Below are positions 4,266 to 63,432 of a stretch of 64,000 nt of DNA, piece by piece. The notes under the pieces are model-generated. The model did not search any database. It was not told where the DNA came from and was given only the letters and a program-made list of their open reading frames with translations. This DNA comes from Minisyncoccota bacterium. GTDB taxonomy: Bacteria > Patescibacteriota > Minisyncoccia > UBA6257 > 2-01-FULL-56-20. The position numbers were made by a program, and so were the translations under genes. The stretch's first letter is position 1, and each line of letters starts with the position of its first letter. The stretch spans positions 394-64,393 of the forward strand of contig JBAYLC010000003.1 in NCBI GenBank assembly GCA_041664245.1, in the 5' to 3' direction.

Positions 4266-4751
4266 TCAAAATTGCTCAACCTCAAATGGATCAAACCGAT
4301 CCACTCTTTTCCCGTCAGTAGAAAATCGAATGACTGCTCGGAGTTTTACTCCTTCCAATATTTGCGGCAGCCATTTTTTATCCGCTACCCACATCCGATC
4401 AAAAGGAATCTCCTCAAAGAAAAACCATTCCGGCTCGCCCATTTCTTCCGAAGCCTTTAGTTCGCCGACCCAATCTTCAATCAAAAAAATGTGCAAAACA
4501 AATTTCGGTTCCTCGCCGAAAAAAGTTATTATAATCGCCACTTTTGTGATTTTAGCTCCGCGAACATCCAAGCCCGATTCTTCTTTAATCTCTCGAAAAA
4601 GTGCTTCTTCTTCCGTCTCGCCATCCTCTATCCGGCCGCCATATCCATTCTGATTGCCTGCTCCAAATCCCTTAAGTTTCAGAGGCAAGCAAACCCGACG
4701 GTCTTTCACGAAAAATCCTACTACCGCATGTTGCATTCTTACCTCCTTCAA
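4266..4751 (-). CDS. Nudix hydrolase (MutT-like)
   Basis: It has a canonical Nudix box, GGRIEDGETEEEALFREIKEESGL. A Shine-Dalgarno sequence (aaggagg) lies upstream of the start. Confidence 0.85.
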   Translation of the reverse strand: MKEVRMQHAVVGFFVKDRRVCLPLKLKGFGAGNQNGYGGRIEDGETEEEALFREIKEESGLDVRGAKITKVAIIITFFGEEPKFVLHIFLIEDWVGELKASEEMGEPEWFFFEEIPFDRMWVADKKWLPQILEGVKLRAVIRFSTDGKRVDRFDPFEVEQF

Positions 4752-4777
4752 AAAACTAACCCCATCCTAAGTCTCTA

Positions 4778-4806
4778 AAAAACAAAAAGCAAGCAAATAA
4801 CTTGCT
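4778..4806 (-). terminator. intrinsic terminator downstream of tRNA-His
   Basis: The minus-strand hairpin agcaag-ttatttg-cttgct is followed by a T-run. Confidence 0.5.
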
Positions 4807-4826
4807 CCGAATTTTTAATTTCCTAA

Positions 4827-4900
4827 TGGGTGCCTAATGGGAATTGAACCCATATCGCCGCTTCCACAGAGCGGAGCTTTACCACTAAGCTATAGGCACC
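4827..4900 (-). tRNA. tRNA-His (anticodon GTG) with genomically encoded G-1
   Basis: The tRNA reads G-GTGCCTA..CCGCT-CTGTGGA-AGCGG..TTCAATT..TAGGCAC-C-CA. Confidence 0.9.
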
Positions 4901-4973
4901 ATCTTTTTGTAATCCCATCTTAAATAAAACCCGATTTCCCGTCAAACCAAATCCGATCTGCTATAATTGTTCA

Positions 4974-5609
4974 ATGCTAAACGGCGTCGAAACTCTAGCC
5001 AACGGCCACCATCTCCTTTACTACACCATTGTATTTCTCTCCGCCATCATCATCGGCAATGCCGCCGCTTTTTCCAGCTTCTGGCTTGCCCTCTTTGGTT
5101 ATCTCGGACGTTGGGGAATGCTCTTAACCATCCTCACTGTTCTCGCCGCTGATATTATAAACGATGTTGGCTGGTATTTGCTCGGCCGCAGTCTCCACGA
5201 TACCCGCTTCGGCGAATGGCTCAAAAAAAGATTTACCAATCACCACCGTATTGAAGACTACATCCACGAAGGCAGCATCAAGTGGCTCTTCCTGGCTAAG
5301 TTTATCTCGAGCACCAACGCGCCGATTGTTTTTCTAGCCGGGTGGGCTAAAGTAAATTTTAAAGAATTCTTTAAAACCAGCCTAGCTGCCATTTTCGTCT
5401 GGATCGTCGGGATGCTCGGCGCCGTTTATTTTATCTCTTCCGGCTTTATTCCTTTAAAATCACTCCAGTTTTTCAAAAAAACCGAGTCAGTCGTTCTTAT
5501 TATTATTGTCAGCGTTATCATCTTTCTTATCCTCAACTACCTTGCCCACTATCTAATCAAAAAAGGGATTCTTAAATTTAAAAAAGAAGAAGAAAGATCT
5601 GATCAATAA
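4974..5609 (+). CDS. DedA/SNARE-associated (TVP38/TMEM64) family membrane protein
   Basis: The 211 aa polytopic membrane protein has a DedA-like G-rich reentrant motif, LGRSLHDTRFGEW. Confidence 0.65.
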   Translation: MLNGVETLANGHHLLYYTIVFLSAIIIGNAAAFSSFWLALFGYLGRWGMLLTILTVLAADIINDVGWYLLGRSLHDTRFGEWLKKRFTNHHRIEDYIHEGSIKWLFLAKFISSTNAPIVFLAGWAKVNFKEFFKTSLAAIFVWIVGMLGAVYFISSGFIPLKSLQFFKKTESVVLIIIVSVIIFLILNYLAHYLIKKGILKFKKEEERSDQ

Positions 5610-5671
5610 AGAAAGAAATAGAATTGACTTATCACCTAAAAACGTCTATTATCTAATTCACTAAAACCTTT

Positions 5672-5929
5672 ATGCCAATCACCAAATCCGCCAAAAAAGC
5701 TCTCCGGCAAAATGTCTCCCGCCGGAAACAAAATTTGAAACGAAAAGAGACCTACAAGCAGGTTGTAAAAGAAGTTCGCAAGCTTGCAAAAAACAAGCAA
5801 AAAACAGAGGCCCAAGCTCTTTTATCGAAAGCCTTTCAGGCGTTGGATAAAGCCGCTAAAACCAACGTCATCAAAAAAAATAAGGCCAGCCGCCTCAAAT
5901 CTCGCATTTCTAAAATTCTAGGGAAATAG
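5672..5929 (+). CDS. rpsT: 30S ribosomal protein S20
   Basis: The 85 aa basic helical protein begins MPITKSAKKALRQN and has KNKASRLKS near its end. Confidence 0.85.
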   Translation: MPITKSAKKALRQNVSRRKQNLKRKETYKQVVKEVRKLAKNKQKTEAQALLSKAFQALDKAAKTNVIKKNKASRLKSRISKILGK

Positions 5930-6715
5930 CTAACTAAGCGCTAAATCAACCAGCGCTTCTTCATAATCCATTTTCCCTGACTTAATCGCCAAATCATAAC
6001 CTGCGATTTTTTCTATCTTTTCCGGTAATTGGTAAGCAATAATATTAAAAACTTTTGCCGTTGGCTCATTCGTGCCCAACATTTTCTCAAGCGCTCGCAA
6101 TCGATCACCTAAAAACCGGCTTTTAAATCCCAAAATCAAACTCCAAAAATTAGGCATCACTTCTAGTCCCATTTTTTCCAAATCTTTCCTATCAATAATT
6201 TCTAGTTCCAAACATCTCAATTTATCTAATTCAGTCACCAAACGCCAAGGATTTCCTTCGTAAACTTTCTCTAAAAAATCCACCGCTGCCGGCGCAAAAT
6301 TCATCTCCCTTTTTTTAATTTCCCTTTTCACAAAAAGATTCCACTCTTTTCCTTTTAAAACATCAAACCCTTGGGTAAGCACAGGTTTTTTGAGAAGAAA
6401 ATTTAATTCCTTTCCCGGTTTATCCGGTGTGGAAATAACCACCGTTACGCTTTTATTCTCTAAAAATAATTTAAGCTCCTCCGCCAAGCCTTTAGCTGGC
6501 ACCTCTAAAATTCCACCTATCACAACAAGTTTTGCTGATTCGAAGATAGATTGATTTCTAAGAAAACTTTTAAATTCTTCAAACCAATTCAAATCTCCTT
6601 CGGCAGAAAAAAATCGCACGCTAAGCCCTGAACGCTTCTTTAGAAATTCCCCAACAATCGCCCGCCGTTTTTCTTCTCGTCTATAGTCGTCAGGACCATA
6701 TAAAAATATAATCAT
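5930..6715 (-). CDS. holA: DNA polymerase III delta subunit-like protein (tentative)
   Basis: The 261 aa product has an N-terminal FLYGPDDY motif resembling the HolA YLLYGEE start. I have no stronger motif. Confidence 0.45.
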   Translation of the reverse strand: MIIFLYGPDDYRREEKRRAIVGEFLKKRSGLSVRFFSAEGDLNWFEEFKSFLRNQSIFESAKLVVIGGILEVPAKGLAEELKLFLENKSVTVVISTPDKPGKELNFLLKKPVLTQGFDVLKGKEWNLFVKREIKKREMNFAPAAVDFLEKVYEGNPWRLVTELDKLRCLELEIIDRKDLEKMGLEVMPNFWSLILGFKSRFLGDRLRALEKMLGTNEPTAKVFNIIAYQLPEKIEKIAGYDLAIKSGKMDYEEALVDLALS

Positions 6716-6725
6716 TTTTAAAATT

Positions 6726-7610
6726 TTAGCTTATCAATTCCTGGCACTTTGAACAAAAATGCGCCGACCTCCCACCAATTTTCATCCGCTGAATTATATG
6801 CTTTTTCGGGCATTTCTGGCCAGTTTTCTGATAAACCAAAATCACCTTTCCATATTCTCCTTTTTTCCCGGCCGTATCTCGAAAATCATCCGAACTCGTT
6901 CCTCGAAATTTTATCCCCTTATTTAAAATTTCCCGCATCGCTTTAAATATGGCTTTTAAATGTTTCTCCTTTAATTTTTCCACCCGGCTCGCCGGATGGA
7001 TCTTGGCCTTGTATAAAACTTCATCCGAATAAATATTACCGATTCCAACAACAAAACTCTGATCCATTAAAACCTGTTTGATCTTTCCCCGCTTCCCCTC
7101 AAACCTATCAGAAAATTCCCTGAAATTAATCACCAGCGCTTCCGGCCCTAACCCCTTTAAATCCGGCAAGTTGAAAATTTCTTCTTTTGGCCCGCAGAGC
7201 ACTTTCGCAAATCTTCTTAAATCCGAAAGTGCTAGCATATTAGAATTTTTTGGCCCATCTAAAAATAAAATCAGCCGGATAAATCCATTTTTCGGATCCG
7301 CCATTAATTTCGACTTCGAAACCGGAATCCATTTGCGATTTGCGATTTGCCACTTGCCGACTAACGGATGCCCCGTCATTTTTAAATGAATTAGGAGTAA
7401 GTGTTTGTCGGAAAGATGAATTAGAATATTTTTTCCTCGCCTCTCAACTCCTTCTATTTTTTTTCTCAAAACATGTTTCTTAAAAGTCGCCAAACTATAA
7501 TGCGGTTTAAAATACTTCGGCCAATCCGTCCAAACATCCAAAATTCGCCGTCCAATTATTTTCAGGCGCAAATCCCTAACCACTGTTTCAACCTCAGGCA
7601 ATTCTGGCAT
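6726..7610 (-). CDS. mutM: formamidopyrimidine-DNA glycosylase
   Basis: The N-terminus is MPELPEVE with catalytic Pro2 and Glu3. The C-terminus has a zinc finger, CPKKHII..HFCSKCQ. Confidence 0.9.
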   Translation of the reverse strand: MPELPEVETVVRDLRLKIIGRRILDVWTDWPKYFKPHYSLATFKKHVLRKKIEGVERRGKNILIHLSDKHLLLIHLKMTGHPLVGKWQIANRKWIPVSKSKLMADPKNGFIRLILFLDGPKNSNMLALSDLRRFAKVLCGPKEEIFNLPDLKGLGPEALVINFREFSDRFEGKRGKIKQVLMDQSFVVGIGNIYSDEVLYKAKIHPASRVEKLKEKHLKAIFKAMREILNKGIKFRGTSSDDFRDTAGKKGEYGKVILVYQKTGQKCPKKHIIQRMKIGGRSAHFCSKCQELIS

Positions 7611-22907: not shown

Positions 22908-22983
22908 AGTGGTGCGCACTCCTGGATTCGAACCAGGAACCGGTCGTGTATAAGACGACTGCTCTACCGTTGAGCTAAGTGCG
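22908..22983 (-). tRNA. tRNA-Ile (anticodon TAT, reads AUA); CCA encoded
   Basis: It reads GCGCACT-TA-GCTC-AACGGTA-GAGC-A-GTCGT-CTTATAC-ACGAC-CGGTT-CCTGG-TTCGAAT-CCAGG-AGTGCGC-A-CCA. Confidence 0.75.
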
Positions 22984-22987
22984 CTCT

Positions 22988-38766: not shown

Positions 38767-41700
38767 CTATATCTTCCTCACCCCCACCCAAATTTCTTCA
38801 CCGTCTAATTTAGTAATAATCTCCACCAAAAACTTTTCCGATTTTTTATAACTAATTGATTCCGCGCCCACCTCCTTTTTAAATGAATCTTCGTTTTTAT
38901 CAATTATTTTTCGCAAGCTCTCGGGTAACTCCATCATTCCCATGATTCGATCCTCTGCGCTTAGTCCCGCTTTCGCTCTCAAATCCTGAACCAATCTCAC
39001 AAATTCCCTAACCAATCCCTCTTCTTTTAATTCTTTAGTAATATTCAAATCCAACTCCACCTCTCCGGAAATTTTGTCGTTAAATTGTACTTCCTTCACA
39101 TTTACCTCATCGGCTAAAATCCGAATTAACTCCTTATTCTTAATTCCTAAATCTTTATTCTTAATTCTCAAAGCCGCCAAAGGTTGGCGGACTTTGATTC
39201 CCGCCTCCGCCCGCTTAGCTAGCCCCAACGCTGCTAATCTTCTCACTTCTGCCATCTCTTCTAAAATTTTTGATTTTTTTTCTCTTGTTTTTAATTCCGG
39301 CCACCTCTCTAGATGTACTGATATTTCATTCTTGATACCTGATTCCCTATTCTTAATTCCTTCAAAAATAACCTCCGCAAAAAATGGCGTAAACGGTGCA
39401 ATTAATTTCGTTATTTCTTGAATCACGTAACCCAGTGTTTGCGATACCGCTGTATAATCTTTCTCGCTTATTGGTTTCTGTAGCCTTCGCCGCGACCTCC
39501 GAATATACCACCGTGATAAATCATTAATCAATTCCTCGATAACTATTGTCGCCTCTCTTACTTCGTAATTCTCGAGGTGTTTAGTTGTCTTATCAATCGT
39601 TTCATTAAGCCGCTCCGAAATCCATTGATCTAAAATATTTCGTGATTCACGATTTGCTATTTGTGATTTGCCATTAGCATACGTGTAATAAAACAAGAAC
39701 GAATTCCATAAAATCAAATGAAATTTCCGGGAAGTTTTTACAATTTCCGCCTCGTCGAAATTCCGAGGCTCTCCCGCCGGCGCCGCATTATAAAAATACC
39801 ACCTAACTGCATCTATCCCGTATTTCTCAATCATCGTCGCTGGCATAACAATATTTCCTTTTGATTTTGACATTTTCTGGCCAAATTTATCGTTTATAAG
39901 CCCAAGGCAAATAACATTTTTATAAGGTGCTTCAAAACCCAAAAGAGTCGCCACCGCTAAAAGGGTGTAAAACCACCCGCGCGTCTGATCTACTCCCTCA
40001 GAAATATAATCTGCTGGATACTGTAAATCTTTTAATCCTTTATTCTGTTCAAACGGCCAATGCGCCTGCGCTAGTGGCATCGCCCCCGAATCAAACCAAA
40101 CATCGGCAATTTCTTTCACCCTTTTCATTTTTCCGCTGCATTTTTTGCAACCAAAAACCATTTCGTCCGCAAACGGCCGATGTAGATTGATCTCCCCTGT
40201 TCTGTCTCGTGGGTTAAGCTTCAAATCAGTTTTTAAAAAATCTGCTACATTTATAAAAATCCCCTCCTTTTTTCCTATTTCTTGAATCGCTTCTTTTTCT
40301 GTCCATCCCCTCATTATTTGAGCAAACATCCAAATTGGATATTCGTGGCTTACAATCAAAATTCTCTTTCCCTTGTATTTCTTTTCAGTATCTTTAATAA
40401 AATCCCAAAGTCGAGTTCGCAAATCTAAAAGCGACTCTCCTCTCTCCGGTTTCTTCGAAAATTTATCCTCATAAGTTGGAAATTCATCGTGATATTCTTT
40501 TAAAGGTCGGCCCGAAAATTCAGCCACTTGTATCTCCCGAATTCGCTTATCGAAATTTACCTTCTTAATTCCTAAGATTTTTGAGGTAATCTGAGCCGTC
40601 TCTTTTGTCCGCAAAAGATCAGAGGCAAAAATCAATTGAATTTTTTCTTTTTTCAAAACCTGAGCGGTTTTCTCCACCTGTTTTCGGCCTCGATCGGTTA
40701 AGTGAAAGTTCTGATTGCCCGAATCAGCAATCCCCAACATCTGTGTTTCCGATTCTCCATGTCTCATAAATAAATACTCATTATTAGCCTCCCCCATCCT
40801 ATCACTCAATTCATCAAGACTGCCGATTACCTCTTCCTTGCCGCACTTACCACAAATCCAAATCGGCAAAGGCGTTCCCCAATATCTTTCCCGGGAAAAA
40901 TTCCAATCCTTCACCTCTTTTAACCATTCACCAAACCGGCCTTCTTTAATGTGTTTTGGCAGCCAATTTATTTTTTTATTCGCCGCCATCAACTCATTTT
41001 TTACCGCCGTGGTCTTCACAAACCAAGCATCTCGCGCATAATAAAGAAGTGGCGTTTTGCATCGCCAGCAGAATGGATATTCATGAGAATATTTTTCTAT
41101 CTTTAGTAAATTCTCGTTCTTTTCTAAAATACTGAAAATTTTCTTATCCGTTTCGGGATCCTTAACATACATTCCGCTCAAGCCCGACACCTCCTTTATG
41201 AATTTCCCCTGTTCATCAACCGTGTGAAATTGCGACAAACCGGCTTTAGCGCCTAACTTATAATCGTCTTCGCCATACATCACCGCCGTGTGTACCACCC
41301 CCGTTCCATCCGTCGTCGTCACAAAATCCGCCGCGTAAATCTTATAAGAATTCTTATTCTTTAATTTAGAAACATTAAAAAGCGGCTCATAATTCAACCC
41401 AATTAGATCCTTACCCTTGGTTGTTTTTTCAATTTTTCCCCGGACGCCCACCGCCTCAATCCGCTCTTTCGCCACCACAAAAATTTCTCCGCTCTCTGAT
41501 TCAAGCAAAACATAATCAATCTTTTCTCCCACCGCCAAAGCCACATTTCCCGGCAGTGTCCACGGCGTCGTTGTCCACGCCAACACATAAGTTTTGTCGT
41601 TCGTGTACCAGTCTCCAATTTTCTGTTTCGATTTTAATTTGAATCTAACGTAAACCGATTTATCTTCCACCGTCTCGTATCCCTGCGCCACCTCATGAGA

Positions 41701-42267
41701 AGAAAGGCCCGTCCCGCACCGTGTGCACCACAAAATAACCTTGTATCCTTTATACAAAAGCTTCCTCGCCCAAAACTGCTTAATAATCCACCACAATGTT
41801 TCCATATAATCCTTTTCATAAGTGATATATGGATTTTTTAAATCCAGCCAAAACCCCATCCGCTCTGTTAATTGCTCACCCTCTTCTTTGTACTGCCAAA
41901 CCGACTCCTTACACTTCTGATTGAATTTCTCAATTCCATATTCCTCAATCTCTTTTTTTGACTTCAACCCAAGCTTTTTTTCCACTTCAATTTCCACCGG
42001 CAAACCGTGCGTGTCCCAGCCGCTCCGCCGCGGCACATAAAAACCGCGCATAGTTTTATAGCGTAGAATAATATCCTTAAAAGACCGTGCTAAAACATGG
42101 TGGATACCCGGCCGCCCATTCGCCGTTGGCGGTCCCTCATAAAAGGTGAATTTTTTCTTTCCCTTATTTTTTTCGAGTGATTTCTCGAAAATTTTATTTT
42201 TCTTCCAAAACTCCAAAACCTTCTCCTCGGCTTTAGCCAAACTAAAATCTTTAAAATCCGCAAACAT
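38767..42267 (-). CDS. ileS: isoleucine--tRNA ligase with inserted histidine-phosphatase (PGAM-like) domain
   Basis: It has HIGH (PGIHH), the CP1 editing region, a CxxC zinc knuckle and KMSKS. A ~200 aa RHGES histidine-phosphatase domain lies between VIGSLDEL and LHRPF. The start may be 42297. Confidence 0.9.
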   Translation of the reverse strand: MFADFKDFSLAKAEEKVLEFWKKNKIFEKSLEKNKGKKKFTFYEGPPTANGRPGIHHVLARSFKDIILRYKTMRGFYVPRRSGWDTHGLPVEIEVEKKLGLKSKKEIEEYGIEKFNQKCKESVWQYKEEGEQLTERMGFWLDLKNPYITYEKDYMETLWWIIKQFWARKLLYKGYKVILWCTRCGTGLSSHEVAQGYETVEDKSVYVRFKLKSKQKIGDWYTNDKTYVLAWTTTPWTLPGNVALAVGEKIDYVLLESESGEIFVVAKERIEAVGVRGKIEKTTKGKDLIGLNYEPLFNVSKLKNKNSYKIYAADFVTTTDGTGVVHTAVMYGEDDYKLGAKAGLSQFHTVDEQGKFIKEVSGLSGMYVKDPETDKKIFSILEKNENLLKIEKYSHEYPFCWRCKTPLLYYARDAWFVKTTAVKNELMAANKKINWLPKHIKEGRFGEWLKEVKDWNFSRERYWGTPLPIWICGKCGKEEVIGSLDELSDRMGEANNEYLFMRHGESETQMLGIADSGNQNFHLTDRGRKQVEKTAQVLKKEKIQLIFASDLLRTKETAQITSKILGIKKVNFDKRIREIQVAEFSGRPLKEYHDEFPTYEDKFSKKPERGESLLDLRTRLWDFIKDTEKKYKGKRILIVSHEYPIWMFAQIMRGWTEKEAIQEIGKKEGIFINVADFLKTDLKLNPRDRTGEINLHRPFADEMVFGCKKCSGKMKRVKEIADVWFDSGAMPLAQAHWPFEQNKGLKDLQYPADYISEGVDQTRGWFYTLLAVATLLGFEAPYKNVICLGLINDKFGQKMSKSKGNIVMPATMIEKYGIDAVRWYFYNAAPAGEPRNFDEAEIVKTSRKFHLILWNSFLFYYTYANGKSQIANRESRNILDQWISERLNETIDKTTKHLENYEVREATIVIEELINDLSRWYIRRSRRRLQKPISEKDYTAVSQTLGYVIQEITKLIAPFTPFFAEVIFEGIKNRESGIKNEISVHLERWPELKTREKKSKILEEMAEVRRLAALGLAKRAEAGIKVRQPLAALRIKNKDLGIKNKELIRILADEVNVKEVQFNDKISGEVELDLNITKELKEEGLVREFVRLVQDLRAKAGLSAEDRIMGMMELPESLRKIIDKNEDSFKKEVGAESISYKKSEKFLVEIITKLDGEEIWVGVRKI

Positions 42268-42651
42268 AGTATCTATATTCAAGCACAAAAAACACAATCA
42301 GTTCAAATTAGACCGAGCTTCCCTTTCGGTAAAAAATCAATTAAACTAGAGCAAAACAGAAAGATAGCCCCTCCTCTTCTCCACCGAACCGCTCTTCTCT
42401 TCTCAAGGAGCAAACCAGGAGAAACAGACTTCCCGTCACTATCTTTCTGTTCTTTTTTTCGCCTTCCCAGCCGAACTAACTACTTCGGCAGAATAGGCAA
42501 GCAGAGCGCCTCCCCTTCTAATTACCACCAAAATAAACTATTCTTAAAATCAAGAGGCAAGATAGATAAGAACTCAAAAGGGACAGACAGCCAAGCTATA
42601 TCCAATAGGGCAAAACGTTCAACCACCTATCTATCTTGCCCTTTTTATTCT

Positions 42652-49126: not shown

Positions 49127-49349
49127 GTTTTTCTCCTTGTCTGCCGGTATTTCTCCGACAAGAAATGGGTTATTGCCTATATATTTAGTCAGTCAATCTA
49201 ATTATCAAATTATCAAGTTGCCCTAATAGTATAGCACGAATACTATCACTTTGTCAAGTGGCACTTTTGAGTTCATTTCCGTCCATCTATCACCCCTCTT
49301 CTGACAATAAAAGCCTTGGTTTACAAGGCTTTTATTTCAATTCCGTCGA

Positions 49350-49669
49350 TGTGGAGATGGGCGGAATCGAACCGCCGTGTAAAAGTAATATCAGTTAGCC
49401 ATCTACGAGCGTAGTTTCGCCGAAGCGAGACAAAGTTTGCTCTATTAGTTTAGTTCCGCTCCCCTAGAGCGAAAGAACAGAACGAGCCTCCTTATATAAG
49501 ACCGGACTTAGCCTAAGAGGCCCAGACCAGCCGATCCTCCGGCGTTATGCGTAAGCAAACGCTGGAGCTGCAACTTTTTGGTTGGCAGATATAAATTGTT
49601 TGCCAGATTAACGAGTTAGCGCTCGGCTCGCCGACTAATGACCTACTCCTATCGAAGCCATACATCCCC
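49350..49669 (-). ncRNA. ssrA: transfer-messenger RNA (tmRNA, ssrA)
   Basis: The 5' end is GGGGATGTATGGCTTCGATAGGAG and the 3' tRNA-like end is GGCGGTTCGATTCCGCCCATCTCCA. The acceptor pairs GGGGATG with CATCTCC. The internal tag reading frame ends ..AAPAFAYA-TAA. A terminator hairpin follows at 49302-49332. Confidence 0.85.
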
Positions 49670-60722: not shown

Positions 60723-61976
60723 CAAAATTTCTTCCACCACCCCCCTATCGCTCCACGCAATTTTTTTTCCTTTTTCTAGGTGGATATAATCCTCACTTCC
60801 TTTTCCGGTGATAATCACCGTATCGCCTTCCTTCGCTAAACCAATTGCTTTCTCAATCGCCTCTCTTCGATCAAGAGTTTCAGAAACTTTGGAAATTAGA
60901 AATTGGGTATTAGAAACTCCAGATTTTATTTCTTTTAAAATCTGGTTTAGATTTTCATCGTAAGAATCCTCGTTAGTCAAAATAACTTCATCACAGAACT
61001 GTCCGGCAATTTCTCCCATCACCGGCCGCTTCCATTTATCTCTCCCCCCGCCCGCCGATCCTAAAACACAAATCAATTTCCCTTCCTTATTTTTAATTAA
61101 AATTTCATAAACTTTTTTTAGACTATCCGGTGTGTGGGCGTAATCAACAATCACCCGAAACGGCTCATCTTGAACAACATCCATTCGCCCTGGTAACCCT
61201 TTAAAATTTTTTATTGCGGCCTTAATAATATCGTTGGAAATTCCGACTTGCTTTGCCACCGCCACTGCCGCCGCGATGTTTTCTCGATTAAATTCTTCAG
61301 ATAACGAATTAGCATTTTTGTCAATATAGTCCCCCGCCGTTTTGGCAAGAGCGCTATTTAAATCGCGATCAGTTTTCGAATATAAAATCACGCTCGCCTT
61401 TTTAACTTTCTCGACAAAAAAATTGGAACTTTCATCATCAGCGTTTACAAAAATTTTCGCGCCCTCTCGCGCCGCATAATTTAAAAATTTTAATTTCGCT
61501 CCCCTGTAACGTTCAAAAGATCCATGATGCTCGATGTGTTCCGGCGCCAAATTAGTAATCACTCCAATCTTCCAATTTAAAAATTTGTGCCGTGATAATT
61601 CCACGCCTTGGGACGTCACTTCAACGATCGCATAATAGCACCCTGCTGTCACCGCTCGCTTTAAAAATCTCGGAATAAAAAATCTCCCTGGCATCGAATT
61701 ACCAGTTAAATTTTTTTCTTTCTTGTCGCCAATTTTTATATAAACTGAAGAAAGCAGCGCTGTTTTCTTTTCAGCTTCTTCGAGAATAGAATTAAGAAGT
61801 TCAATAACCGTTGATTTGCCTTTTGTTCCAGTAACGCCGATCAAAAAAATTTTCCGGCTTAGAAACCCGAAAAAAAAATTTCCCCAAAACGCTAATTTAA
61901 AATGATAGATCCGAAATAAAACTGGGAACTTATAGAGCCATTTAATCAGCCAATTTTTTTTTAATGATTCAAGCAT
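60702..61976 (-). CDS. Mur ligase family protein (MurE-like)
   Basis: It has a P-loop GVTGTKGKSTV and LAPEHIEHHGSFERYRGAK. At 424 aa it is short for MurE. Confidence 0.7.
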   Translation of the reverse strand: MLESLKKNWLIKWLYKFPVLFRIYHFKLAFWGNFFFGFLSRKIFLIGVTGTKGKSTVIELLNSILEEAEKKTALLSSVYIKIGDKKEKNLTGNSMPGRFFIPRFLKRAVTAGCYYAIVEVTSQGVELSRHKFLNWKIGVITNLAPEHIEHHGSFERYRGAKLKFLNYAAREGAKIFVNADDESSNFFVEKVKKASVILYSKTDRDLNSALAKTAGDYIDKNANSLSEEFNRENIAAAVAVAKQVGISNDIIKAAIKNFKGLPGRMDVVQDEPFRVIVDYAHTPDSLKKVYEILIKNKEGKLICVLGSAGGGRDKWKRPVMGEIAGQFCDEVILTNEDSYDENLNQILKEIKSGVSNTQFLISKVSETLDRREAIEKAIGLAKEGDTVIITGKGSEDYIHLEKGKKIAWSDRGVVEEILEKKRPR

Positions 61977-62556
61977 GCTTCTGGTCTGACAAAATTTTTA
62001 ATGCCTCTTTTAGTCTTTTTTCTAAACTTAAAAATTCTTTCGACACTTTATCGAGCGCTCGTTTCGCCTGGTCTCTTCCATAACCAAGGCCGGTTAGAGT
62101 ATCAACTAGGTCGCTATCAATTTCCATTTTTTTAACCGCTTCCGTCGAGCCCTCAGCTTCAACTTTGTTTTTTAATTCCAAAATAATTCTCTCGGCCGTT
62201 TTCTTTCCAACTCCAGAAGCTCGGCTGAATAAATCACTTCGCTCTTCTTTGATCGCTGAAAGTAATTCATTAAGCGGCGCCACATCCATAACCGAAAGAG
62301 CCGACTTCGGACCAACCCCTCCGACCGTATTTAAAAGCTCAAAAAAATCCAACTCCCTAACCGATATAAATCCGTAAATCTCAAACGCCGTTTCTCTCAC
62401 AAAAAGTCGGGCATAAATTTTAATATTACTCTCAATCGCCGGCAGCGAGGAGATACTCCTTTTGGAGGAAAAAATCTTTATCCCAAAGCCGCCAATATCT
62501 ATAACAAAGAAATCGGGTAATTTCTCGCTTATTCTTCCCTGGAGGTAATAAATCAT
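61969..62556 (-). CDS. ruvA: Holliday junction DNA helicase RuvA
   Basis: Its N-terminus is MIYYLQGRI and it has HhH motifs (GVGPKSA, GVGKKTAERI). Confidence 0.85.
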   Translation of the reverse strand: MIYYLQGRISEKLPDFFVIDIGGFGIKIFSSKRSISSLPAIESNIKIYARLFVRETAFEIYGFISVRELDFFELLNTVGGVGPKSALSVMDVAPLNELLSAIKEERSDLFSRASGVGKKTAERIILELKNKVEAEGSTEAVKKMEIDSDLVDTLTGLGYGRDQAKRALDKVSKEFLSLEKRLKEALKILSDQKHA

Positions 62557-62690
62557 TAATCTGAATTATATTAGAAATTCCATTTATGCGCCACAAACGG
62601 ATTCAACTAGGAAAGTCACCTTTTCGGTTTTAACGCCAAAACCCAATAATCCTATGAAACCTATGTTTCTCAACAAAAGTAGAAAATTAA

Positions 62691-62946
62691 ATGTTTAGCG
62701 CTAAACATCCCTGCTTGATCAAAAAGCCAGTATTGTTGGAAAATATACATATAATTAGAAATTAGCCAAAAAATTGTTTCGCGCTAAACACTCCAAGAAT
62801 TGGAGCCCCTCCTAATTATAAGGACATCAATGTTTCGCGCTAAACAATTAGTAATGCAAAAATACGGCAATAATACATATATATAATCAGGCAATCATAT
62901 ATTTGCCGTATTACTACATATATCAATGTTTAGCGCTAAACATTGA
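62691..62946. repeat. four copies of a perfect palindrome (core TGTTT[A/C]GCGCTAAACA; 62691-62708, 62776-62790, 62831-62846, 62923-62946), candidate operator array
   Basis: The palindromes are self-complementary by inspection. They sit in the divergent ruvA / yraN intergenic region. Confidence 0.6.
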
Positions 62947-63006
62947 TAACAAAACAAACACAAATAATAACTTCAAACAAATGATATAATTAAATAAACA
63001 CTCAAA

Positions 63007-63432
63007 ATGGAAGAACAATCCACAAATTTAGAGGTAGGGAGATTAGGAGAAGATCTAGCCGAAAAGTATTTAAGAGACAGGGGATACGAGATAGTCACCC
63101 GAAACTACCGCCAACCTTGGGGAGAAATTGATATAGTTACAAAATCCAAAAATAGAACCCTTACATTTTTTGAAATCAAAACTTTAAAAAAGCCAGAATT
63201 TAACAATGAGACGAATATAAAACCCGAAGACAATTTAACCGCCTCTAAACTTTCAAAGCTAAAAAGAATCTGTGAAAGTTTTGCCAACTCAAACCCAAAG
63301 CTAATCACAGGTTCTCGAGGGTGGCAAATTGATCTCTTAACCATCTGGATAAAAAACTTTTCTAACGTCCAAACCCTGTTATTGACAGAAATAGAAAAAG
63401 ATTGCGAAATAAAACACTACGAGAATATTTAG
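63007..63432 (+). CDS. yraN: YraN/UPF0102-family predicted endonuclease
   Basis: The N-terminus is GEDLAEKYLRDRGYEIVTRNYRQPWGEIDIV. Confidence 0.75.
   Translation: MEEQSTNLEVGRLGEDLAEKYLRDRGYEIVTRNYRQPWGEIDIVTKSKNRTLTFFEIKTLKKPEFNNETNIKPEDNLTASKLSKLKRICESFANSNPKLITGSRGWQIDLLTIWIKNFSNVQTLLLTEIEKDCEIKHYENI

Follow-up and report, generated by a model that had tools for sequence, protein, structure and literature searches.

Results

Four palindromic sites lie between divergent ruvA and yraN

We analyzed a 64-kb stretch of DNA from a Minisyncoccota bacterium (contig JBAYLC010000003.1; the whole stretch of 64,000 nucleotides is referred to as the window) that carries an array of palindromic sites between two divergent genes. 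On one side lies ruvA (61969–62556, minus strand; Pfam RuvA_N, HHH_5 and RuvA_C), and on the other yraN (63007–63432, plus strand), which encodes a UPF0102 nuclease of the PD-(D/E)xK type with intact catalytic residues D42, E56 and K58 and is followed by yebC. The 450-bp intergenic region (62557–63006, no strand, ~31% GC), which the gene coordinates place where an earlier note on this DNA had put it, holds four copies of TGTTTMGCGCTAAACA, starting at 62692, 62775, 62831 and 62927 in a motif scan of the window. The dnaA-dnaN genes lie just past the right end of the window, with 5.8 kb separating the start of the array from the dnaA end. Identical RuvA and DnaA proteins assign the window to a metagenome contig of 182 kb from a "Candidatus Paceibacterota bacterium" (CPR/Patescibacteria).

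The four sites, none of which has a strand assignment, differ in symmetry. Site 1 (62692–62707), TGTTTAGCGCTAAACA, is a perfect 16-mer within a palindrome of 18 bp (62691–62708), and site 4 carries the same sequence at 62927–62942 inside a 28-bp perfect palindrome (62921–62948). Sites 2 (62775–62790) and 3 (62831–62846) both read TGTTTCGCGCTAAACA and are imperfect in the same way, with half-site CGC on the left and AGC on the right, leaving a single non-complementary pair, C6 opposite T11. The earlier note had described four perfect palindromes with centers 86, 56 and 94 bp apart, the last of them 24 bp long; the count of four stands, perfection applies to sites 1 and 4, the measured center-to-center distances are 83, 56 and 96 bp, and the last palindrome is 4 bp longer than stated.

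Allowing up to three mismatches, no further copy was found in the window, in agreement with what had been noted before, and none occurs away from the ruvA/yraN locus within ~80 kb of contiguous source sequence. The window yields 8 strand-matches against 1.2 ± 1.3 expected by chance, a number equaled in 0 of 100 dinucleotide shuffles, and the gapped form TGTTT-N6-AAACA gives 4 matches against 0.15 expected. The array is real and non-random.

The inverted repeat aatacggcaa-N32-ttgccgtatt in spacer 3 (62861–62870/62903–62912), which had also been pointed out, is real and belongs to a 50-nt imperfect inverted repeat linking sites 3 and 4. It is kin to a second family of palindromes of the CGGCAATTGCCG type (e.g. 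TCCGGCAATTGCCGGA), which recur near arrays in seven related loci (L051, L123, L133, L134, L184, L187 and L202) and may be the site for a second protein; the window form is a split inverted repeat, ACGGCAA-N-TTGCCGT, in spacer 3.

The sites belong to a motif family that includes canonical parS

For comparison, we fetched 80 yraN loci from the Candidate Phyla Radiation (CPR) by protein similarity only, using a six-sequence YraN alignment, so that the sample is unbiased as to DNA motif (related loci fetched for comparison carry labels of the form L###). Of 79 loci, only 9 have the exact window motif, at up to two mismatches, upstream of yraN. TGTTT-N6-AAACA, on the other hand, is 19-fold enriched within 600 bp upstream of yraN (2.74 vs 0.147 per kb elsewhere) and half-sites of the form TGTTTnnC are 8.5-fold enriched (9.2 vs 1.1 per kb), with four or more in 42 of 77 loci. 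The cores differ by lineage (AGCGCT in 16 sites and CACGTG in 14, besides CGCGCT, ACCGTG, GTCGTG, GCCGGC, TACGTC and GTCGAC), and nearly all of them keep the central CG.

The CACGTG core gives the exact canonical chromosomal parS, TGTTTCACGTGAAACA, with 24 perfect copies in 408 kb compared to ~1e-4 expected; a single Wolfebacteria-type locus, L188, has 13 sites, eight of them canonical parS, in the 850 bp upstream of yraN. Across 128 sites, the central CG is invariant, albeit subject to ascertainment bias, and the flanks, for which the set is unbiased, are conserved, with A at −1 in 81%, extending the dyad to ~20 bp, AATGTTTAGCGCTAAACATT. The window motif is a member of a TGTTT-nnCGnn-AAACA family, captured by the pattern TGTTTnnCGnnAAACA, that includes exact canonical parS. 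TGTTTCACGTGAAACA has been described as a marker of chromosomal ParABS systems, whereas for the variant parS of secondary replicons the description is of a 16-bp palindrome that is T-rich at its 5' end and has a central CG within a 6-bp core made up of 2C, 2G, 1A and 1T (PMC5450999); TGTTT-AGCGCT-AAACA has every element of the latter description.

Half-sites vary independently within arrays

We next consider how half-sites are paired. Across 221 sites in 45 arrays, with random pairing of each array's own half-sites as the null, 131 sites are symmetric at positions 6-7/10-11 compared to 133.6 expected (permutation p = 0.75), and half-site types are mixed in 36 of the 45 arrays. Since half-sites pair at random, selection acts on the half-sites and not on hairpin complementarity. 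This independent variation points to recognition by a dimeric protein rather than to hairpins, and bears out the earlier suggestion, made from the dyad symmetry, of a dimeric DNA-binding protein.

These data bear on the possibility that the array has no protein-specific role and is either a hairpin, cruciform or RNA structure, or a selfish repeat such as a miniature inverted-repeat transposable element (MITE), a repetitive extragenic palindrome (REP), a degenerate array of clustered regularly interspaced short palindromic repeats (CRISPR) or a DNA-uptake sequence. A long imperfect inverted repeat (62826–62947) does fold as a hairpin, and it accounts for the weak matches to microRNA-precursor models; these sub-threshold hairpin matches were all that Rfam scans at gathering and E-value thresholds returned, with no family at threshold. 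The lack of selection for complementarity between half-sites, together with retention of the same genomic position across deep divergence, makes a structural or selfish origin very improbable. MITE, REP and uptake sequences were rejected on zero extra copies in 80 kb. The earlier note had held that abundance throughout the genome would mark a generic repeat; the motif is not abundant, either in the ~80 kb of source sequence or in a GTDB scan which, among the matches listed, typically gave one locus per contig or genome, including contigs of 0.5–0.9 Mb. CRISPR, which the earlier note had likewise discounted, was rejected on the short repeat (only 16–20 bp), its irregular spacing, the partial conservation of spacers from unit to unit and the lack of nearby cas genes.

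A much looser arrangement than that of the window is seen on a 695-kb CPR contig (L210, 8718–10000), where TGTTTCAC/TGTTTTAC half-sites in inverted, everted and spaced configurations crowd a non-coding stretch of 1.28 kb upstream of yraN.

yraN, and not ruvA, is the conserved partner of the array

An exact-pattern scan of one genome per GTDB species detected clusters of two to seven copies of the 16-mer in at least ~35 Patescibacteria metagenome-assembled genomes (MAGs) among the matches listed, with spacing modes of 36–37, 40–45, 48–52 and 81–85 bp. Outside the CPR, the 16-mer is, among the matches listed, essentially single-copy and resembles chance matches, with the exception of L098, and a scan of viral contigs gave four single matches, with no phage or plasmid ParB association seen. 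L098 is a GC-rich MAG labeled Planctomycetota with six perfect copies of TGTTTAGCGCTAAACA at 4533–6866, spaced by ~113 bp and 225 bp, that have conserved flanks (...ACAgcatgg...) and no yraN; the motif is present on two more contigs of that MAG (L014 and L088). Here the palindrome seems to have been put to a separate, unrelated use.

Of 31 array loci, 24 have the start of a yraN homologue immediately downstream of the array, most of the exceptions being arrays cut by contig or chunk ends, and the distance from array to yraN start is always 10–90 bp. The opposite flank varies while yraN stays: it is ruvA, a dksA-like gene with comM, or a gene for a VTT-domain (DedA-like) membrane protein after ftsH. 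At least three synteny types were distinguished in which an array of 2–13 sites directly precedes yraN, namely dnaN-PBP-ruvC-yebC-yraN <[array]> ruvA-mur, which is that of the window and the only one with ruvA as the divergent neighbor, comM-dksA/TraR-like <[array]> yraN-nusA, and ftsH-VTT >[array]> yraN-folD. The conserved partner of the array is yraN, not ruvA, and the emphasis that had been placed on ruvA is misplaced. The motif is also kept at the orthologous position in related genomes, a point on which the earlier note had made its reading depend; the window intergenic region is orthologous to those of eight loci (L010, L038, L051, L077, L087, L100, L123 and L025).

CPR YraN proteins have diverged to 31–54% identity and keep the catalytic residues. 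DnaA of L025 and L051 is 76–78% identical to that of the window's Paceibacterota genome, so some third-party annotation (TPA) MAG labels ("Saccharibacteria") look unreliable, and taxonomic breadth is therefore better judged by YraN divergence than by the labels. Among contigs with a yraN homologue many are very short, and contig ends hold some of the arrays (L020, L033, L049 and L050), from which it appears that arrays break short-read assemblies. In Southlakia epibionticum, SEML1_0521 has the UPF0102/YraN domain fused to RNase HII, with an upstream spacer of only 103 bp (PMC10633639 supplement); the pairing of yraN and array is therefore not universal in Patescibacteria.

Two 7-site arrays, L023 and L030, have no adjacent yraN, which indicates a role beyond yraN control. 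Perfect site copies are also found within coding sequence near the array, in yraN itself and in folD, which lies directly downstream of yraN in Wolfebacteria-type loci; the loci with sites inside yraN are L045, L095, L135 and L177. The folD copy, perfect or near-perfect, falls in a stretch encoding ...FSAKH... in four CPR MAGs (L042 at 2362, L058 at 4857, L075 at 2587 and L091 at 2541) with diverged flanking codons; it may be a true intragenic site, or may stem from the way in which the loci were retrieved.

The association with yraN also bears on the proposal, made in the earlier note, of LexA/SOS operators that control ruvA. In favor of it are the palindromic form of the motif, its position in a promoter region and the fact that ruvAB are SOS genes in some bacteria; the motif resembles no LexA box known to us. 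The element tracks yraN instead of ruvA, 4–13 copies at one locus are unlike a regulon, no site is present at recA in six recA-bearing related loci (L007, L149, L156, L167, L200 and L212), and neither lexA nor recA is present in the window. Furthermore, Patescibacteria LexA is cited as recognizing a direct repeat (PMC7739468). LexA control is, in our estimation, scarcely credible.

Another possibility is that YraN itself reads the palindromes, either for autoregulation or for site-specific nicking or cleavage at its own upstream array. It is the only gene consistently linked with the array, it contains sites in the four loci named above, binding proteins are often encoded next to their own site arrays, and enzymes of the PD-(D/E)xK fold typically read palindromes as dimers. 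Nevertheless, we consider this improbable. The CPR proteins have no extra DNA-binding domain and their catalytic residues are intact. Self-cleavage of the chromosome at 4–13 sites would be harmful. The site family includes canonical parS, the known reader of which is ParB, and arrays persist in L023 and L030 without adjacent yraN. Moreover, Legionella YraN is monomeric and cuts single-stranded DNA (ssDNA) with highly relaxed specificity (bioRxiv 10.1101/2024.02.06.579203).

Promoter-like elements are interleaved with the sites

Arrays of the window lineage's close relatives are built of ~83-bp tandem diverged units, each with one dyad and a conserved box, GTAAGCCCGTAAAACCTAC, mid-spacer. By-eye comparison of L010, L025, L038, L051, L087 and L100 indicates that the box, always oriented towards yraN, resembles a −10 promoter element and may serve as one; the same comparison locates a degenerate copy, gccagtattgttggaaaatataca, in spacer 1 of the window (62726–62749, plus strand). 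A candidate yraN promoter, the extended −10-like TGaTATAAT (62982–62990, plus strand), ends 16 nt before the yraN ATG and was not called by a consensus promoter scan. The center of site 4 lies ~50 bp upstream of this putative −10, and the sites extend to ~40 bp from it. On the minus strand, TATAAT at 62565–62570, 8 nt before the ruvA ATG, is a candidate ruvA promoter that would leave little or no leader, and a terminator-like hairpin (62579–62601, ruvA strand) lies between array and ruvA. The unit structure suggests that the array grew by tandem duplication of a module of site and promoter, in which case site occupancy would affect transcription of yraN and possibly of ruvA.

The leading alternative to a ParB-based reading of this layout is an operator array, grown by tandem duplication of an operator-promoter unit, for a conserved dimeric transcription factor other than ParB (with a helix-turn-helix (HTH) of the LacI, CRP/FNR or Xre type) that controls yraN and a divergent recombination or competence gene, whether ruvA or dksA-like/comM. 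In its favor, the array end is always 10–90 bp upstream of the yraN start, the ~83-bp units carry a conserved −10-like box towards yraN, and no parB was found nearby. The variable N6 core within fixed TGTTT/AAACA arms recalls CRP-type sites, and the central AGCGCT recalls the symmetric lac operator. The neighbors, too, are transformation and recombination genes, with ruvA, ruvC and yebC adjacent, and ComM and YraN act together (bioRxiv 10.1101/2024.02.06.579203). Against this stand the exact canonical parS 16-mers in homologous arrays, the 13 near-perfect sites of the largest array, which far exceed what an operator needs, the perfect intragenic copies and the arrays without yraN. There is apparently one target locus per genome, yet the motif is conserved over deep divergence, and no candidate regulator gene is conserved beside the array: Pfam scans of array-flanking genes identified ComM, DksA/TraR zinc-finger, NusA, FtsH, VTT-domain and FolD proteins, among others, and no DNA-binding candidate common to all synteny types. 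Taken together, we judge a non-ParB operator array to be rather unlikely, albeit well short of negligible.

Replication origin and partition genes

The sites lie in an AT-rich, unusually long non-coding region between divergent genes, ~6 kb from dnaA-dnaN, as might a replication origin (oriC) in which the palindromes are clusters of DnaA boxes or sites for another initiator. The CAC-type half-site TGTTTCACA fits the relaxed DnaA box TTWTNCACA at 8/9 positions. The AGC, GCC and GTC half-sites, however, are without the CACA that DnaA requires, no canonical DnaA box is present in or beside the array, and TTATCCACA-like boxes are not enriched. In addition, the sign of the GC skew is the same on both sides of the array, here, with no sign switch within the fetched 21 kb, and in L188, L038, L087 and L100; L188, with its co-oriented flanking genes, has a skew of 0.18 to either side. 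An origin at the array itself is thereby rendered highly unlikely.

The region just left of rnpA-yidC-jag-dnaA on the source contig (L204, 1–8166) has a type IV secretion cluster adjoining the dnaA region, with genes for PrgI, a TraC-like protein, a VirB4-like DUF87/TraG P-loop protein and a type IV secretion system (T4SS) pilin; the GC skew over this cluster is weaker than in the remaining contig.

Searches of all fetched DNA for partition genes used tblastn (genetic codes 11, 25 and 4) and phmmer with approximate B. subtilis Spo0J and Soj queries, and their sole match was an archaeal contig. No ParBc or ParA was found within 4–10 kb of any array, and neither ParB nor ParA in the 17 kb on the array's left side; leftward of dnaA on the source contig, the type IV secretion cluster was seen and no parAB. 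Southlakia epibionticum has both a Soj-like protein, SEML1_0183, and a ParB, SEML1_0184 (PF02195 and PF17762), flagged as a core family; the two genes score from growth-defect to essential in transposon sequencing (Tn-seq) and lie 180 kb from dnaA (PMC10633639 supplements). With parAB so distant from dnaA in Southlakia, a distant parAB is plausible in the source genome too.

Other features of the window

Three further features were observed. A 1176-aa isoleucyl/class-I tRNA synthetase (38767–42297, minus strand) has a complete His_Phos_1 domain (residues 509–668) inserted in the middle of its catalytic domain, an unusual arrangement. At 22910–22984 (minus strand), a tRNA-Ile is predicted whose anticodon is TAT (UAU); such a tRNA is uncommon in bacteria, in which AUA is normally read by a lysidine-modified CAU tRNA, and it may indicate a TilS-independent decoding strategy. 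Lastly, an ordinary transfer-messenger RNA (tmRNA) gene with tag peptide ANQKVAAPAFAYA lies at 49349–49669 (minus strand).

Discussion

The array upstream of yraN has features in common with several characterized ParB-site systems. Like chromosomal parS (consensus TGTTNCACGTGAAACA, first described in Bacillus subtilis), the window sites are 16-bp dyads with TGTTT/AAACA arms and a central CG; they match this consensus at 12/16 (A variant) or 13/16 (C variant) positions, are multi-copy and lie near dnaA, and homologous arrays of other CPR lineages hold the exact canonical sequence. They differ in having a core of AGCGCT or CGCGCT in place of CACGTG. The CPR sites, furthermore, form a tight tandem array with 36–96 bp spacing in one intergenic region, whereas chromosomal parS sites are scattered over kilobases and often lie in genes; and unlike chromosomal parS, the array is fixed upstream of yraN, has cores that are heterogeneous within arrays and has no parB found nearby.

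The parS of B. cenocepacia chromosome II is gTTTATGCGCATAAAc (PMC7022226). This Bsr variant of the Burkholderiales follows the same grammar as the window motif, from which its arm spacing differs by 2 bp, and both occur in clusters of several copies. Bsr sites, however, belong to plasmid-like replicons and lie next to their own parAB, whereas the window array, without adjacent parAB, belongs to a reduced genome and to its main chromosome, the only one known. KorB, a ParB-family repressor that is both a partition protein and a transcriptional repressor acting from multiple sites, binds the operator TTTAGCGGCTAAA, which has the TTTAGC half-site in common with the window motif (PMC11790492). The KorB site OB of the IncP plasmid RK2 (TTTAGCSGCTAAA) has a half-site, TTTAGC/GCTAAA, identical to that of the window motif, but it is a 13-bp dyad with one central base that is dispersed over the plasmid, in contrast to the window dyad, which has no central base; no KorA or KorB homologue was identified at the array.

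The sopC centromere of plasmid F comprises 12 units of 43 bp, and in every unit a ParB-type protein binds a 16-bp inverted repeat. The CPR array is likewise made of tandem diverged units with one 16-bp dyad each, in copy numbers that vary between relatives; unlike sopC, CPR arrays are chromosomal, of variable unit length (36–37, 40–45, 48–52 and 81–85 bp) and interleaved with promoter-like boxes. In S. pneumoniae, ParB-parS influences competence genes, with a single parS near comCDE. Partition-type sites adjoin natural-transformation genes in both cases, although in the CPR it is a whole array, not a single parS, that is joined to the promoter of yraN, the gene for the D-loop nuclease, beside comM in many lineages. 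Literature searches found the motif string in no paper, nothing relevant linking CPR with ParB or parS in main texts, and no arrangement of a parS-like array upstream of yraN.

Based on these comparisons, we interpret the element as a lineage-specific variant parS-type array, a member of a CPR-wide class, that serves for loading of a ParB-family protein or as a centromere and doubles as a regulatory region for yraN and its divergent neighbor. We hold this with slightly better than even confidence. It corresponds to what the earlier note had listed as a secondary suggestion, a ParB-like loading site, and is now the best supported reading. A dimeric ParB-family HTH protein would bind each 16–20-bp dyad (consensus AATGTTTAGCGCTAAACATT), with one monomer per TGTTTnnC half-site, and the four tandem sites (up to 13 elsewhere) would nucleate a large nucleoprotein complex ~6 kb from dnaA that could serve as centromere and clamp-loading platform. 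As promoter-like boxes lie in among the sites, which come within ~40 bp of the putative yraN −10, the complex would also be expected to gate transcription of yraN and possibly that of the divergent gene (ruvA here, dksA-like/comM elsewhere), resembling the double role of KorB as partition protein and repressor. The data show the sites, their uniqueness, their conservation upstream of yraN, their membership in the motif family with canonical parS and the independent evolution of half-sites; which protein binds them, and the roles as centromere and in transcription gating, we infer.

The intragenic perfect copies, the 7-site arrays without yraN and copy numbers of up to 13 favor a centromere-like platform over a simple operator; intragenic site copies are typical of parS and unusual for operators. 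Conversely, the strict placement upstream of yraN, the interleaved promoter-like boxes, the variable cores and the everted or spaced half-sites speak for regulation in cis and would allow a reader other than ParB.

Several observations weigh against a ParB-loading array. The window motif departs from canonical parS at 3–4 of 16 positions, and no canonical parS is found in the window at up to two mismatches. Positions 6-7, which characterized ParB proteins read, vary within single arrays (L179 and L198), and some lineages have everted or spaced half-sites (L210, L056 and L095). Strict placement upstream of yraN with interleaved promoter-like boxes is what an ordinary operator array would show. 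In other bacteria, parS sites usually cluster near parB, and no parB or parA was found in ~0.85 Mb of CPR DNA from ~130 loci, including the 80 kb around the array and dnaA. Finally, proximity to the origin is seen for the window lineage only, with no dnaA found within 10 kb of the array in other lineages, and GC skew did not place oriC in the fetched sequence.

A more far-reaching form of the ParB-loading interpretation, which we advance tentatively and regard as possible but doubtful, is that in CPR bacteria parS-type sites make up one tandem "super-centromere" per chromosome, physically joined to the yraN promoter, and that the cores of these sites (AGCGCT, CACGTG, GCCGGC, GTCGAC and TACGTA) have diversified between lineages and are even mixed within arrays. 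Were this true, it would imply unusually fast ParB-parS co-evolution, or relaxed reading of the core, on a primary chromosome, or alternatively a reader that is not a canonical ParB and couples chromosome segregation or organization to natural transformation and recombination. Natural transformation needs YraN, a PD-(D/E)xK ssDNA endonuclease, together with the ComM helicase at its recombination step (bioRxiv 10.1101/2024.02.06.579203).

Chromosome segregation and gene regulation are almost unstudied in the CPR. If the array is a CPR centromere, it would provide a landmark of chromosome organization recognizable by sequence in thousands of uncultivated genomes, as well as a natural experiment in the drift of ParB-parS specificity on a main chromosome, a setting otherwise described as having a nearly invariant canonical parS. 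Direct tests are feasible, as genetic tools and ParB genes exist for cultivated Saccharibacteria. A centromere at this position would also suggest that, in organisms believed to rely on DNA uptake, the yraN/comM transformation-recombination module is physically linked to the machinery of partition.

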